From Escherichia phage Ec1-ASingh, in the sequence record PQ561394: a stretch of 42,423 bases of DNA; one strand, written 5' to 3'. Below, one piece after another: positions 4,210 to 36,217 of this stretch. The first letter of the stretch is position 1. Each line of letters begins with the position of its first letter. A program made the position numbers and the translations under genes. The notes below the pieces were generated by a model. The model had not been told where the DNA came from. It did not search any database and saw only the letters and a list, made by a program, of their open reading frames with translations.

Positions 4210-4780
4210 GAAAGGTCAGAAGTTTATCTTAGACCCGGCACGCAACTGGGGTACTGGCACGCTGCTGAGCGACATTGCTGAGCAAGGTATCATCCTGACG
4301 TACGACGAACCGTACGATGTGCCGAATGACAGCCGCGATTACTACACCTGCGTGAAGGATGGCAAGACCCACACGCTGGTACTGGAGCCGTTCGAGGTGA
4401 AAGAAGTCGAGACTGCGTTCATCCCGGTTGACCCGTACGACCCGGCCAGTGATGTTGAGGTGGCCGTGGCCAAGAGTGCTGGGCCGGGCGGCATGAAGTT
4501 TGACGGCGGCAAGCCCCGCATGTCACTGCTGTTCGATGGCTGCCCGAATGCACTGGAGGCTGTAGCCAGCGTGCTCACCTTCGGCGCTGAGAAGTATGCA
4601 GCCCACTCGTGGCAGACTGTACCGGAAGGTGAGGAACGCTATAAGTCAGCGCTGCTCCGGCACCTGACGGCGGTGGGCAAGGGTGAGGAACTGGATAGCG
4701 AATCCAACCTGCACCATCTGGCGCACGCTGCGTGCAATGCGCTGTTCATTCTGGAACTCGAATTAAGGAAACGCAAATGA
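4202..4780 (+). CDS. hypothetical protein; C-terminal half resembles phage dATP/dGTP pyrophosphohydrolase N-domain (low confidence)
   Basis: GGAGGT RBS before ATG 4202; C-terminal pattern GGKPRMSLL...LTFGAEKYA...W...ALLRHL...HLAHAACNALFILE recalled as typical of phage nucleotide pyrophosphohydrolase-associated domain. Confidence 0.5.
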   Translation: MGKKGQKFILDPARNWGTGTLLSDIAEQGIILTYDEPYDVPNDSRDYYTCVKDGKTHTLVLEPFEVKEVETAFIPVDPYDPASDVEVAVAKSAGPGGMKFDGGKPRMSLLFDGCPNALEAVASVLTFGAEKYAAHSWQTVPEGEERYKSALLRHLTAVGKGEELDSESNLHHLAHAACNALFILELELRKRK

Positions 4781-4953
4781 GTGTTTTACTTTGGATTGTA
4801 GCTGTGGTATGGTTTGCCCTGTTCTCTGTTGTCTGTCTGGCTGCGTGCGACCAGTACAACAAGACACATGTTGACAGGTCTGGTGCAGCAGGCTTTATCC
4901 TGTGGGTATTCTTGGCTGTCATCCCTGCTATTCTGTTTGCCTGTCTTGCGTAG
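4777..4953 (+). CDS. small two-TM membrane protein
   Basis: 58 aa, AAGGAAA RBS, ATGA overlap with upstream stop; two hydrophobic helices (LLWIVAVVWFALFSVVCLAA / FILWVFLAVIPAILFACLA). Confidence 0.5.
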   Translation: MSVLLWIVAVVWFALFSVVCLAACDQYNKTHVDRSGAAGFILWVFLAVIPAILFACLA

Positions 4954-24804: not shown

Positions 24805-26564
24805 TGGATTTACAACGCCGCATGGTGATGGCAGGAATCGTTCGCGCTCACTACGAGAACAACTTCCCGCTGTTCCTGCATGACTACTTCGCATGGCTGG
24901 GCTTTGACCTCACTGAAATGCAGCTCGACATTGGCCGCTACATGGCCGACAGGACGCTCAAGAACAAGTGCGTCATGGCGCAGCGTGGTGAGGCAAAGTC
25001 CACCATCGGTATTGCTCGCGCTCTGTACGAATTTGTGCAGATGCCGAACGCCACTGTCCTGCTTGTGTCCGGTTCCGACGACTATGCTGGTACGCTGTCG
25101 CACGCTATCGTGTCGGCTATCATGCAATGGGAACGTCTGGAATGGCTCAAGCCTGAGACTCGCGCTGGCGCACGTACGTCATTTACTGACGGCTTCGACG
25201 TGCATCACGCGTTCCGTATCCCTGACAAACAGCCCTCTGTAAAAGCGGTCGGTATCTTCGGCCAGCTACAGGGGAACCACGTATCGCTGTTGATTGCCGA
25301 TGACGTGGAGACTACCAGCAACGGTAGCTCTCCTGCCAACCGCGCCCGTATCAACACCCTGACCAAAGAGTTCGCGGCTATCGCCAACGATGGTGCAGAG
25401 ATTCTGTACCTCGGCACGCCACAGACTCAAGACTCCATCTACAACACGCTCCCGCAGCGTGGCTTCGACGTTCGCATCTGGCCCGGTCGTTTCCCAACGG
25501 TTGAGGAAGAAGAACGCTACGGCGGCTGTCTGGCCCCGTGGATTAAGCAGAAGATGGAAGGCCACCCTGAGCTGCGTACCGGACACGGTATCCTTGGGAA
25601 CCGTGGCGCACAGACTGACCCGCAACGCTACTCCGAAGAAAAGCAGTTGCAGAACGAACGAGACTACCAGCAGGCAGGCTTCCAGTTGCAGTTTATGCTG
25701 GATACGTCGCTGTCGGATGCGCTCAAACAAACGTTACATCTCAAAGACTTAATCTTCTTCCACGGCTCTACGCAGTCTGCGCCGGAGGTTCTGCATTGGT
25801 CGAACCACCCGCGTCATGCCGCCGAGCTGCCACTGGATTTCCCACTGGCTCGTGCTCAGCTATTCTTGGCTGCTGATTTCTCGGACACTTATGTACCATT
25901 CGAAAATACCTCGGCGTTTCTTGACCCTGCTGGTGGTGGGTCGGACGAATCAGTTATCATTGCCACCGCTTCTGTCGGCCCGTTTATCCACGTCATCGGT
26001 ATGCACGTCTACCACGGCGGCCAGACGGAGGAAAACATCAAGGCGGCGGTAGAGTGGCTCGCTGAAACCGGGGTCAAACGGCTGGTCATTGAGGATAACA
26101 TGGGCCACGGCACCGTGACCAACATGTACCGAGGTGAGATTAAGCGCCAGAGCTTGACGATTGGCTGTGAAGGCGTGTACTCGTCCGGCCAGAAAGAGGT
26201 GCGTATCATCAACCGCCTTGGCCCAATCATGCAGCGCCACCGTGTCGTCGTACACTGGTGCGTTGTTGAAGAAGACCTGCGGCTGTGTCGCGGGATGAAC
26301 AACGGTGGTCGAGAGTTCAGCCTGTTCTGGCAGCTCCAGAACCTGACACAAGACCGTCAATCCATCCCACACGATGACCGTATCGAAACCCTATCTGCTG
26401 CCGTGTACCTGCACGCTGAGGTGCTACAGCAGGACGAACATGAAGAAGCTGCCAAGCGCGAGACGGCTGCCGCACGCGAGTTCCTTGCCAACCCAATGGG
26501 TTACGATGACTCGAAGTGGCGTAGCCATAAACCTGTGCGCGGCACGCGACGGAGAATCAAATAA
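24804..26564 (+). CDS. terminase large subunit
   Basis: 586 aa; ATPase-like segments (QRGEAKST Walker A-like, LLIADDVETT Walker B-like); synteny. Confidence 0.8.
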   Translation: MDLQRRMVMAGIVRAHYENNFPLFLHDYFAWLGFDLTEMQLDIGRYMADRTLKNKCVMAQRGEAKSTIGIARALYEFVQMPNATVLLVSGSDDYAGTLSHAIVSAIMQWERLEWLKPETRAGARTSFTDGFDVHHAFRIPDKQPSVKAVGIFGQLQGNHVSLLIADDVETTSNGSSPANRARINTLTKEFAAIANDGAEILYLGTPQTQDSIYNTLPQRGFDVRIWPGRFPTVEEEERYGGCLAPWIKQKMEGHPELRTGHGILGNRGAQTDPQRYSEEKQLQNERDYQQAGFQLQFMLDTSLSDALKQTLHLKDLIFFHGSTQSAPEVLHWSNHPRHAAELPLDFPLARAQLFLAADFSDTYVPFENTSAFLDPAGGGSDESVIIATASVGPFIHVIGMHVYHGGQTEENIKAAVEWLAETGVKRLVIEDNMGHGTVTNMYRGEIKRQSLTIGCEGVYSSGQKEVRIINRLGPIMQRHRVVVHWCVVEEDLRLCRGMNNGGREFSLFWQLQNLTQDRQSIPHDDRIETLSAAVYLHAEVLQQDEHEEAAKRETAAAREFLANPMGYDDSKWRSHKPVRGTRRRIK

Positions 26565-27244
26565 TGTCCATCATCACCATCACTGATGCACAGCGTTACG
26601 AGCTTGGCTATCGCTGCGGTATCGCAGCTAATGTGACTCAACGCTTTATCAATGATACCCGTACAGTGACGGCAGCTCAGGCTGCTGATATTGAAACGGC
26701 TATCACCAATCTGGTGGCGGCACTTGAGGCGGCTGGCTATGCTGGTACGCCGGAAGGTTCCGCTCTGCTGGCTGACGGCGCTACTGTTTCCGTGGTTAAC
26801 TCCGCAGGTAACGACTCGCACAGCGCCACTGCCAACGTTACTGGCACCACGCTGGATAACGTGCAGCTCGTCCTGTCTACCGCAGCTATGGTAGACCACA
26901 CTGACTCAACTGAGATTCGTCGCTTCGACGGCTCTATCCTTGGCATCACCACTGCTACCGCCCGTGTAGCTGACGGTCTGCTGAGTAATGTGCGGCTCCC
27001 GGCTAACGCCGACGCAGTGCTTAACGGTTCGACTTACTCCGTCCGTAACTCTGCTGGTGCTGACGGCCATAACGCCACCGCTGTCGTGGCAAGCAACGGT
27101 GCCCTCACTGGCTTCAACCTCGCCGCTACTGTGGCCATGGTGGATAACGGTGATGCACTGACTATCCCGGTCACTGGCACGTACACTGACACCGTGACCT
27201 TCGCTATTTCCGCTGGTGCAATCACTGGCATCACACTCTCTTAA
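26564..27244 (+). CDS. hypothetical protein with internal tandem ~65-aa repeat
   Basis: 226 aa; two related segments (VSVVNSAGNDSHSATANVTG...AAMVDHTDS and YSVRNSAGADGHNATAVVAS...VAMVDNGDA). Confidence 0.5.
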   Translation: MSIITITDAQRYELGYRCGIAANVTQRFINDTRTVTAAQAADIETAITNLVAALEAAGYAGTPEGSALLADGATVSVVNSAGNDSHSATANVTGTTLDNVQLVLSTAAMVDHTDSTEIRRFDGSILGITTATARVADGLLSNVRLPANADAVLNGSTYSVRNSAGADGHNATAVVASNGALTGFNLAATVAMVDNGDALTIPVTGTYTDTVTFAISAGAITGITLS

Positions 27245-27460: not shown

Positions 27461-27949
27461 ATGAAACTGTCTCGGCTAATGGCCGGGGCAGTCCTATCAG
27501 CGTCGCTGACTCTGACGGGCTGCTCCGCAACTAGCGCACTGTCTGCTGTAACTTCGGCTGTATCTCCCAACAAGCCGGAACTGACGGCTCAGGTAGGTGC
27601 AGAAAATACGAAGCAAGGTATCGGTGTGACTGCGAAACAGTCCGATGAAACCGAAGTCGGTGATGTATCTGGCAACGCGAAAGTGGATACCGCTAAGCAG
27701 GGTTCGAATGGCACATCCATCAAGGACGTCTCAGGAGGCTCTGTAAACGCTTCTAAGCAGGGGTCGCAAATGACCCAAGGAAACGTACAGGCTCGCACGG
27801 TTATCGTCTCTCAGAGCGACCCACGCAGCCTCCTATGGGCTTTCGGCATGGGCCTTACGTGTATCCTTGGTTTAGTCATGTGGTTTGTACCATCTCCGTG
27901 GAAAAGGAAAGTGAAAGATGACGGAAGCAAAGAAGGAGCCATCTCCTAA
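27461..27949 (+). CDS. lipoprotein with C-terminal TM helix (unimolecular-spanin-like architecture)
   Basis: Signal peptide with lipobox LTLTGC at N-terminus; Gly/Ser/Thr/Gln-rich middle; C-terminal hydrophobic helix LLWAFGMGLTCILGLVMWFV. Confidence 0.5.
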   Translation: MKLSRLMAGAVLSASLTLTGCSATSALSAVTSAVSPNKPELTAQVGAENTKQGIGVTAKQSDETEVGDVSGNAKVDTAKQGSNGTSIKDVSGGSVNASKQGSQMTQGNVQARTVIVSQSDPRSLLWAFGMGLTCILGLVMWFVPSPWKRKVKDDGSKEGAIS

Positions 27950-28301
27950 CATCCACTCGCGTATGGGTGCAGTGGAGGCTCGTATGCAGACCGTAGAACT
28001 TCGACTTGACAAGCACGAGGTACAAATCGCCACTCTTGAAAAGGGCGATGCTGCAATGATTTCCAAGCTGGCTGAGAACGACCTCCGCTGGCAGACGGTT
28101 CAACAGCAGCTCCTTGTGGTTGAGCAAATTCAGGACATTCAAAAGACTATGAGCCATATCGGTAAGTTGTTTACGGCGGCGGCTCACGCTGTCAAATGGT
28201 GTCTCTTAACTGCATCCCTGTGTAGCGGTATCTACTTAGCAATCAAGGCTGGTGACTTAAGCTCACTGCAAGCCTTCATCACTACACTACTGGGGATGTA
28301 A
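27918..28301 (+). CDS. coiled-coil protein with single C-terminal TM helix (holin candidate, non-canonical)
   Basis: 127 aa; N-terminal heptad-like region; C-terminal hydrophobic segment VKWCLLTASLCSGIYLAI; located immediately upstream of endolysin. Confidence 0.4.
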   Translation: MTEAKKEPSPNIHSRMGAVEARMQTVELRLDKHEVQIATLEKGDAAMISKLAENDLRWQTVQQQLLVVEQIQDIQKTMSHIGKLFTAAAHAVKWCLLTASLCSGIYLAIKAGDLSSLQAFITTLLGM

Positions 28302-28837
28302 TGACTAACTTTGAAATCTGTATGCGGTTCACCGGGCTGGCAGAAGGTGGTTATACCAAGCTGCCCGGCGATACCGGAGGGGAAACGAATCATGGAATTA
28401 GCGACGCTCGTGATGGCAAACTGGATGGCCGAGCTTGTGGTGTCCCTACTGGGCTTGGCGGCACTATTTGCGTGCCTATCAAAGACCTCACCAAAGCACA
28501 AGCCGAAGCAATCTATCGACGGGATTACTACGCCCCCATCCGAGGTGACGAGCTTCACCCTGCGATTGCATGTGCCGTGTTTGACTACGGTGTCAACTCC
28601 GGTGTCTCCCGTGCGGCGAAAGCTCTACAGCGGGTATGCGGCGTTGCACAAGACGGGATTATTGGCCCTGCTACCGTGGCAGCAGCCAAACGTCTGGAAC
28701 CTCACTCCGCAGCAGCAGCCATCTGTGACCTTCGTATTGCGTTCCTAAAGGCTTCTACAGCCCCGACAGTGGTTCGCTATAGGGATGCCTTGGTTGCTCG
28801 TGCAAAACGCTGTAGCGCTTACTGTGCGACGCTGTAG
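28301..28837 (+). CDS. endolysin, GH108-like N-terminal domain plus peptidoglycan-binding domain
   Basis: N-terminal FTGLAEGGYTKLPGDTGGETNHGI (GH108 EGGY signature) and FDYGVNSGVSRAAKALQRVCGVAQDGIIGPATVAAAKRL (PG_binding_3-like); no N-terminal SAR/TM segment. Confidence 0.75.
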   Translation: MTNFEICMRFTGLAEGGYTKLPGDTGGETNHGISDARDGKLDGRACGVPTGLGGTICVPIKDLTKAQAEAIYRRDYYAPIRGDELHPAIACAVFDYGVNSGVSRAAKALQRVCGVAQDGIIGPATVAAAKRLEPHSAAAAICDLRIAFLKASTAPTVVRYRDALVARAKRCSAYCATL

Positions 28838-29040
28838 GGGTATCCAAAAGCTGAGGCAATGAACAGGCCGTGGGTGCAATACCCCGGCTTGAAAATTGCA
28901 CGTTTATGCTTGCCCCTCCCTCGACCCAAATGACCGCGCGTGCCCCCATAGCGTGTGCGCGGATTAGCCTCGCGACGTGCGCGATATTTGCTCGCGTGCG
29001 CTGCGCGGCGCGTCAAGAGGATTGCCTGCGTGCGGTATAG

Positions 29041-36013: not shown

Positions 36014-36217
36014 ATGTTCAAAGTAATATTGTTGTTCCTGCTTCTGGTAATTATTTGGGGAGCATTATGGGTGGGTCTTGCATCATTGGTGCTTATCCCT
36101 GCTGTCGGTGAGTCAGCCACTTCAACACTGGGCACGCTGCTCGGTATGCTGGTGGGCTGGGGTCTGATGCAGTTGAGCCTGAGTGTAGGCCAGAGCCGGA
36201 GGTGGATTAAATGGTGA
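36014..36217 (+). CDS. small two-TM membrane protein
   Basis: 67 aa; GAGGTG RBS; two hydrophobic helices. Confidence 0.5.
   Translation: MFKVILLFLLLVIIWGALWVGLASLVLIPAVGESATSTLGTLLGMLVGWGLMQLSLSVGQSRRWIKW

Follow-up and report, generated by a model that had tools for sequence, protein, structure and literature searches.

How does a phage whose lysis genes pair a soluble endolysin with no obvious holin let that enzyme out of the cytoplasm? The question is raised by positions 27,461 to 28,837 of a 42,423-nucleotide stretch of DNA from Escherichia phage Ec1-ASingh (sequence record PQ561394), which as a whole is called the window below. A preliminary description, made from the sequence alone, had read this locus as a non-canonical lysis cassette consisting of a lipoprotein that resembles a unimolecular spanin (u-spanin; gene 1), a tail-anchored coiled-coil protein (gene 2), and a GH108 endolysin (gene 3). 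Our computational analysis upholds this anatomy, although the label 'non-canonical' and the statement that gene 2 fits no standard holin class need qualifying. We propose, from sequence comparisons and with a probability of roughly 0.6, that gene 2 encodes the holin or an essential holin subunit. We assign it this role because it takes the slot of a pinholin in related phages, because its family is tied to soluble endolysins, and because, the spanin aside, no other transmembrane (TM) protein is shared by Bonnellvirus and LIMEzero. What is new here is the middle gene as a candidate for an XhlA-like, C-terminally anchored holin of Gram-negative podophages, apparently free of a partner and portable between endolysin families.

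All three open reading frames (ORFs) lie on the plus strand at the places first described (Table 1), and every gene of the window is on that strand. The spanin gene overlaps gene 2 by 32 nucleotides, and gene 2 overlaps the endolysin gene by a single base, within TAATG. The 1.9-kb stretch around the cassette matches Enterobacter phage BHUENT7 at 100% identity and 17 other phage records at 83–99%; all 18 are Bonnellvirus (Autographivirales, Autoscriptoviridae, Stentvirinae). The genome that carries the cassette is a Bonnellvirus, a phiKMV/LIMEzero-like podovirus, and the window is a near-complete (42,423 of ~42,544 bases), circularly permuted copy of it. In the relative J8-65, the same three genes come last, ahead of the annotated right terminal repeat. 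Positions 27461–28837 hold a complete late lysis cassette, transcribed with the terminase genes and placed just before the right terminal repeat. Across the genus, the median ratio of nonsynonymous to synonymous divergence (dN/dS) is 0.145 for the spanin gene, 0.115 for gene 2, and 0.129 for the endolysin gene, indicating purifying selection on all three; these low ratios, together with conservation in 18 phage records, mark the ORFs as real genes rather than chance frames. A scan of the cassette for sigma-70 promoters and terminators gave nothing exceeding background, as expected for late genes driven by a phage RNA polymerase.

The need for a holin follows from gene 3, an ordinary cytoplasmic GH108 endolysin with a probable peptidoglycan-binding domain and nothing unusual about it. 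The protein matches Glyco_hydro_108 (PF05838) with E = 8.8e-22 and 77.9 bits against a cut-off of 21.2, the endolysin family phrog_315 with E = 1.4e-40, and PDB entry 7DNP with E = 3.4e-23; PG_binding_3 (PF09374) reaches 24.0 bits against a cut-off of 24.6, and the 7DNP alignment extends through that region. With other enzymes of this type (PF05838/PF09374; 7DNP, 2IKB, 2IS5, 2NR7), gene 3 shares the E-G-G-Y region, present here as E15-G-G-Y, as well as domain order and size, and it differs from 7DNP in a loop insertion of ~10 residues. An N-terminal hydrophobic segment is absent, the best 19-mer scoring +9.0 kcal/mol on the Hessa scale, in agreement with the earlier statement that the enzyme carries no signal or signal-arrest-release (SAR) sequence. 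An endolysin without an export signal depends on holin holes wide enough for a folded protein of ~19 kDa to pass. Because it has neither a signal nor a SAR sequence, the gene 3 endolysin needs a holin.

A hydropathy scan of the cassette ORFs found none with two or three TM segments, as the preliminary description had said, and the spanin is the only other membrane protein conserved in both Bonnellvirus and LIMEzero. The literature searched (PMC8402661, PMC6139136) names no holin for the genus Bonnellvirus, nor do the spanin database supplements for J8-65 or LIMEzero. Gene 2 itself has the marks by which a holin gene can be picked out, namely a small product (127 amino acids), one hydrophobic segment, and a position next to the endolysin gene, whose start its stop codon overlaps.

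The gene 2 protein falls in phrog_35530 (E = 2.5e-57), a family labelled 'unknown function', and neither Pfam nor NCBIfam yielded a holin family for it, NCBIfam returning coiled-coil noise only. A word-indexed search with the protein retrieved only 33 clusters at identities of at least 68%, and tblastn over 50,697 phage records found the gene only in Bonnellvirus (18 of 18 records) and in LIMEzero, as gp54 (54% identity). Seven more full-length relatives, 126–149 residues long (E = 1e-12 to 2e-6), came from an exhaustive profile search of 1.84 billion representatives, whose remaining matches were partial coiled-coil alignments; a second profile search yielded more of this remote group. These remote homologs, 20–30% identical to gene 2, lie on eight T7-like metagenomic contigs that were reached via six distinct family proteins. 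They always follow the terminase and stand directly upstream of a soluble T4-type lysozyme (PF00959) that has no N-terminal hydrophobic segment, with junctions that read TAATG, TAGTATG, TAATATG, or TAATAATG. Since the partner is a GH108 enzyme in the window and a PF00959 enzyme in the remote contigs, the gene 2 family is associated with endolysins that belong to two unrelated folds. An all-frame scan of the remote cassettes, which lie on partial contigs, revealed no other TM ORF among the genes and ORFs checked, and further locus searches in viral and metagenome contigs gave no additional cassettes with gene 2 relatives.

Comparison with related podophages places gene 2 in the holin slot. The gene order in PP90, BF25/12, and KpV48 is TerL, hypothetical, small hypothetical, u-spanin, middle gene, and endolysin; the middle gene there is an annotated holin of 83–89 residues, and the endolysin bears an N-terminal hydrophobic, SAR-like segment. 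Related KP34-type cassettes consist of a pinholin and a SAR endolysin (PMC4411677). The window shares with these KP34/LIMElight/PP90-type cassettes the gene order, the position after the terminase, the homologous u-spanins, and the overlap pattern, whereas in Bonnellvirus and LIMEzero both lytic partners have been swapped: the slot of the 83–89-residue holin is taken by the 127-residue C-terminally anchored protein, and that of the SAR-like lysozyme by the soluble GH108 endolysin. To call the cassette 'non-canonical' was too strong, since a u-spanin, a middle gene, and an endolysin after the terminase are standard in KP34-, PP90-, and BF25/12-type phages (PMC4411677).

As first described, the gene 2 protein is a coiled-coil protein with a single C-terminal hydrophobic segment. 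The AlphaFold2 model (mean predicted local distance difference test score 81) consists essentially of one long helix, spanning residues 12–110, then a break at 111–113 and a second helix at 114–125. A fold search of this model against BFVD returned no match at E ≤ 0.001, a result that is uninformative because the model is a single long helix. The segment at residues 91–109 has a KD19 value of 1.58 and is the only one of its kind in the protein. Its Hessa sum is +2.99, while SPP1 gp24.1 scores +0.39 and SPP1 gp26, a proven holin, +4.17; by these sums, which are crude scale totals, it is weaker than the gp24.1 segment and stronger than the best gp26 segment, and the TM call for gene 2 comes from hydropathy scales only. 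Within the protein, constraint is strongest in the membrane segment and tail (residues 86–127; dN/dS 0.079). Members of the family follow a common plan that begins with an N-terminal motif, [YH]-R-x-h-G-x-h-E (SRMGAVEARM in the window), and continues with a long helix containing a nearly invariant His. Toward the C terminus come a hydrophobic core of 16 residues with Lys or Arg on either side, a G-D turn (G112 and D113 are invariant throughout the family alignment), and an amphipathic tail of 12–16 residues.

The preliminary description had held that this protein fits no standard holin class. That statement stands insofar as no described holin family matched; however, a precedent exists in the layout of XhlA and SPP1 gp24.1, which a profile match also links to gene 2. 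Both are experimentally established one-TM holin components (PMC6316719, PMC5589764), and SPP1 gp24.1 is a genuine member of the XhlA family (E = 3.9e-14). When 11 aligned gene 2 family members were scanned against Pfam, XhlA (PF10779) was the commonest match (8 of 11, best E = 0.0019, all sub-threshold); three members matched phrog_1193, 'hemolysin', and one weakly matched phrog_1296, 'holin' (E = 0.005). Aligning the family with a 20-sequence XhlA alignment in hhalign gave a probability of 91.7% and E = 7.8e-7 over 39 columns, with D31-K32-H33-E34-V35-Q36-I37 of gene 2 set against the invariant D-R-H-D-Q-Q-I of XhlA, for a shared motif of D-[KR]-H-[DE]-x-Q-I. The real score was 40.9, as opposed to 23.4 for the reversed control and 10.6 ± 1.6 (maximum 14.7) for 60 column shuffles. 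Taken separately, the two subgroups (Bonnellvirus/LIMEzero and remote) matched the same XhlA region at ~80% and 78%, respectively. Together, these comparisons suggest that the gene 2 family is probably a distant homolog of XhlA rather than a member of that family. Gene 2 resembles XhlA and SPP1 gp24.1 in its N-terminal cytoplasmic coiled coil with the shared motif, its single C-terminal TM segment, its endolysin neighbor, and the possibility of a dual start. It differs in its greater length (by ~40 residues, with additional helix separating the motif from the TM segment), in its weaker TM segment followed by the conserved G-D turn and amphipathic tail, and in belonging to a phage with a Gram-negative host.

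SPP1 gp24.1 has a dual start (PMC6316719, PMC5589764), and in gene 2 a second start may lie at Met23. The sequence GTGGAGGCTCGTATG, in which GGAGG is followed after five bases by the ATG of Met23, is invariant at each base in 14 of 14 Bonnellvirus genomes, and GGAGG-N5-ATG also occurs in LIMEzero. The first start lies inside the spanin gene and has a weaker ribosome-binding site. Nevertheless, the 127-residue form is real, because its N-terminal 22 residues are conserved protein sequence. For LIMEzero gp54 (L006:2477-2872), J8-65 gp46, and the ortholog in RZ4, the annotation begins at an internal start codon; as the N-terminal extension is conserved, their true start is upstream, inside the spanin gene. 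An additional 105-residue product lacking the conserved N-terminal motif is plausible in the Bonnellvirus/LIMEzero clade, and one may speculate that it tunes the timing of lysis, on the model of dual-start holins and of SPP1 gp24.1/24.1*. A dual start throughout the family can be rejected: the remote homologs have a single strong start and no internal Met, and the column of Met23 is a hydrophobic position in them.

If gene 2 acts as the holin, the 127-residue protein would insert into the inner membrane in a tail-anchored manner, the N terminus staying in the cytoplasm and the short C-terminal tail lying in the periplasm. It would oligomerize via the long cytoplasmic helix as it builds up late in infection and, at a critical level, would permeabilize the membrane, alone or as an essential holin subunit. 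The folded endolysin could then gain access to the peptidoglycan and degrade it, and once the peptidoglycan is lost, the u-spanin, with its lipid anchor in the outer membrane and its transmembrane domain (TMD) in the inner one, would be free to disrupt the outer membrane. A more far-reaching version of this proposal, which we put forward tentatively and would not bet on, is that phrog_35530 and its metagenomic relatives form a stand-alone class of tail-anchored holins in Gram-negative T7-like phages. Derived from or convergent with XhlA, such proteins would make self-sufficient lesions through one weak C-terminal helix driven by the coiled coil, with a dual start in Bonnellvirus and LIMEzero.

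A stand-alone XhlA-like holin would be new. The XhlA proteins of lysis cassettes characterized to date all come from Gram-positive phages and depend on a partner. T4 T, a class III holin, also has a single TMD, with a short cytoplasmic N terminus and a large periplasmic C-terminal domain. As a candidate, gene 2 resembles it in having one membrane span, in being a late gene, and in the release of a soluble endolysin. There is, however, zero sequence similarity between the two, and the large domain of gene 2 is N-terminal and predicted to be cytoplasmic, so that the periplasmic part would comprise ~15 residues. If gene 2 works alone, it would therefore represent a holin topology with a mass distribution opposite to that of T4 T, and would offer a simple one-span system for studies of holin triggering. 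If it is a holin, annotation pipelines could label a gene that is now 'hypothetical' in every deposited Bonnellvirus genome. For the J8-65/LIMEzero-type cassettes singled out by Kongari et al. (2018), gene 2 is a specific, testable holin candidate.

Several observations weigh against a holin role for gene 2. The hydrophobic segment is marginal, with a 16-residue core and a Hessa sum of ~+3 kcal/mol behind a hydropathy-based TM call, and the protein ends in an amphipathic, largely uncharged 14-mer, LSSLQAFITTLLGM, in place of the charged hydrophilic C terminus typical of holins. The link to XhlA also has weak points: the window protein fails the Pfam XhlA gathering score (13.0 bits versus 34.7), pairwise BLASTP of gene 2 against SPP1 gp24.1 gave no match, and coiled-coil composition somewhat inflates profile scores, as the reversed control indicates. 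In addition, SPP1 gp24.1 and PBSX XhlA need a two-TM partner holin (gp26 or XhlB): each component is harmless alone, and the two together cause immediate death and lysis (PMC6316719). In surveyed Enterococcus phages, XhlA always stands alongside a canonical holin (PMC10630273), and no adjacent two-TM partner of the XhlB, gp26, or Phage_holin_1 type was found in the window cassette, in LIMEzero, or in the remote cassettes. These points lend themselves to a reading in which gene 2 is an XhlA-type accessory, inactive alone, that sets timing after the example of SPP1, in which gene 26 is an early transcript and 24.1 a late one and gp24.1 is thought to set the timing (PMC6316719, PMC5589764). The pore-former would then be one of two small membrane proteins encoded far from the cassette, both of which exist as the preliminary description had reported, and both of which are possible XhlB-like partners. 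One, of 67 residues (36014–36217), is encoded in the early region, is detectable in 18 of 18 Bonnellvirus records, and is very hydrophobic (Hessa sum −4.71); the other, of 58 residues (4777–4953), has two strong TM segments. However, LIMEzero, which has the same pair of 127-residue gene and endolysin, encodes zero small two-TM proteins, and neither ORF was detected there. The 58-residue ORF also went undetected in J8-65, smaasur, Lidtsur, and LF82-23, and it is patchily distributed and fast-evolving (47–51% identity in 8 of the 12 records that carry it). Neither ORF matched a holin family in PHROGs or Pfam or received any family assignment, and the remote cassettes, though on partial contigs, show no partner beside the gene 2/lysozyme pair. 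We consider the accessory reading rather unlikely.

A role outside lysis would make gene 2 some other late coiled-coil protein, soluble or membrane-associated, such as a timing regulator or antiholin, a superinfection exclusion protein, or an assembly factor, with the holin being something unrecognized. The marginal hydrophobic segment and the uninformative fold search would both fit, and an XhlA domain alone is no proof of a lysis role because in lambdoid phages of Mannheimia an XhlA-domain protein sits in an early operon, outside the lysis cassette (PMC4553209). Against this stands the tight and repeated coupling of the gene 2 family to endolysins of two unrelated families in distant phages, as well as the fact that gene 2 replaces the pinholin exactly where the endolysin turns from SAR-type to soluble; gene 2 is the only candidate that Bonnellvirus and LIMEzero both conserve. 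A non-lysis role hence seems quite unlikely to us. The last alternative is a holin gene hidden in the +1 frame of the endolysin gene (28392–28748, 118 codons). Embedded holin genes occur in a few Gram-positive phages, and this frame would encode a single hydrophobic segment, MAELVVSLLGLAALFACLS, and after it the basic stretch KTSPKHKPKQ. The frame is open in 14 of 14 Bonnellvirus genomes with an invariant core, VSLLGL, and shuffling the synonymous codons of the endolysin gene seldom reproduced its length (P = 0.019) or its length together with its hydrophobicity (P = 0.002). The chance of meeting no +1 stop, given the protein sequence and codon usage, is low (P = 0.06) and speaks for the frame, but its openness hangs on two codons, which counts against it. 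In LIMEzero, charged residues break the hydrophobic stretch and the frame closes earlier; moreover, five other genes of this 55.6% GC genome hold alternative-frame ORFs of 114–216 codons, the product has no PHROG match, and the remote cassettes contain no equivalent. Synonymous variability is not reduced in the segment (7 of 16 codons vary, compared with 56 of 138 gene-wide), so the synonymous sites give no sign of a second coding constraint. We reject the embedded frame, which is probably a product of chance and very improbable as the holin gene, and retain gene 2 as the favored candidate.

Low synonymous divergence (dS) in the endolysin gene has a different source. Pooled values of pS fall along the gene toward the genome end (0.41, 0.24, 0.19, and 0.10), and the lowest dS lies outside the embedded ORF, whereas the gene directly upstream has a dS of ~1. 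The 200 nucleotides of noncoding DNA after the endolysin stop are 92–96% identical in seven of nine relatives compared and 75–76% identical in J8-65 and Lidtsur. Because the gradient runs toward a conserved genome terminus, the low dS is not the signature of an overlapping gene; rather, the right terminus (window ~28301–29040, by the terminal repeat) is either conserved to an unusual degree or has been exchanged recently.

Gene 1 is a unimolecular spanin of the T1 gp11 family, already known as such. BLASTP aligned T1 gp11 with its product over the full length (34% identity, E = 2e-16), the product matches phrog_1804, 'Rz-like spanin' (E = 6.9e-36), and homologs occur in 517 phage records, many of them annotated as u-spanins. 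The lipobox and C-terminal TM segment that had been pointed out earlier are both present. The former reads L18-T19-G20-C21 and is followed by Ser22, the +2 residue expected, from the translation, for outer-membrane sorting; it is kept in LIMEzero, PP90, BF25/12, and KpV48, and the lipobox column is conserved in five homologs. Residues ~123–144 are strongly hydrophobic (KD19 2.01, Hessa sum −1.18 kcal/mol) and are followed by KRKVK, and the mature periplasmic region (residues 22–122) has zero Cys, the criterion used in PMC6139136. The orthologs from J8-65 and LIMEzero are already listed in the T1 gp11 family catalogue, where they are called 'unusually long' and are the sole members of the T1 family without a pinholin/SAR-endolysin cassette (Kongari et al. 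2018, PMC6139136). We traced the extra length to a tandem periplasmic unit of ~20–26 residues (VKDVSG..NA.KQG; window 27630–27790, residues ~57–110), which is present once in PP90, BF25/12, and KpV48, twice in the window, and three times in LIMEzero. Gene 1 thus shares with the T1 gp11 family the lipobox signal, a beta-rich, Cys-free periplasmic domain, and the C-terminal TMD; it differs in size (162 versus 133 residues), through the repeat of this unit, and in being paired with a soluble endolysin instead of a pinholin/SAR system.

Table 1. Positions in the window of the lysis genes and of the parts of their products.
Feature	Position	Strand	Basis
Unimolecular spanin gene (gene 1), T1 gp11 family, 162 amino acids	27461..27949	+	phrog_1804, BLASTP to T1 gp11
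Lipoprotein signal peptide of gene 1, lipobox L-T-G-C (Cys21 codon 27521-27523), Ser at +2	27461..27523	+	Translation
Inner-membrane TMD at the C-terminal end of gene 1 (residues ~123-144), then basic cytoplasmic tail	27827..27892	+	Hydropathy
XhlA-like, C-terminally anchored coiled-coil protein (gene 2), 127 amino acids, holin candidate	27918..28301	+	phrog_35530, family alignments, AlphaFold2
N-terminal conserved motif region of gene 2, residues 9-44 (..SRMGAVEARMQTVELRLDKHEVQIATLEKGD), XhlA profile match	27942..28049	+	hhalign
Internal GGAGG-N5-ATG (Met23) of gene 2, possible second start, 105-residue product	27974..27986	+	Conservation
Weakly hydrophobic membrane segment of gene 2, residues 91-109 (AVKWCLLTASLCSGIYLAI), 16-residue core bracketed by Lys	28188..28244	+	Hydropathy
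K-A-G-D turn of gene 2, then 14-residue amphipathic C-terminal tail	28245..28298	+	Family alignment, AlphaFold2
Soluble endolysin (gene 3), 178 amino acids	28301..28837	+	GH108 muramidase-type domain 28337-28603; PG_binding_3-like domain 28613-28747

Among the small ORFs outside the cassette, 4777–4953, 36014–36217, and 1118–1261 were each considered as a universal holin gene and rejected, being patchy in distribution or located in the early region, with no holin-family match and no LIMEzero counterpart. LIMEzero for its part encodes a 53-residue protein with a single C-terminal TM segment, ORF35 (L032:20583-20744), just after its RNA polymerase gene; no counterpart lies at the equivalent position of the window.

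Two other neighbors of these cassettes deserve mention. In the metagenomic relatives, a highly cationic peptide of 41–42 residues (e.g., MVKKEGSKWVVRSTTGKKLGEHPTKAKANAQLRAIEANKHK) flanks the pair of gene 2-family protein and lysozyme (L019:6869-6994, L022:3611-3736, L026:1430-1558). It has no Pfam match above threshold, and no spanin was seen among the called genes of these relatives. The peptide may be an outer-membrane 'disruptin' like gp28 of phiKT, whose spanin-less cassette consists of an endolysin, the disruptin, and a holin with four TMDs (bioRxiv 10.1101/515445). The T4-type lysozyme and adjacent cationic peptide of the metagenomic relatives recall that arrangement, whereas the window has a u-spanin in place of a cationic peptide; the phiKT holin was rejected as a gene 2 relative, having four TMDs and being unrelated. 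The second neighbor is the 226-residue protein encoded after the terminase (window 26564–27244), a member of phrog_9732, whose function is listed as unknown. Its ends, MS.IT.LT.AQ at the N terminus and T.TF...AGAIT.I.LS at the C terminus, are common to mini-versions of 40–97 residues at the equivalent position in the remote contigs (L019:5694-5987, L022:2612-2734), which suggests that its central part is a variable insert.

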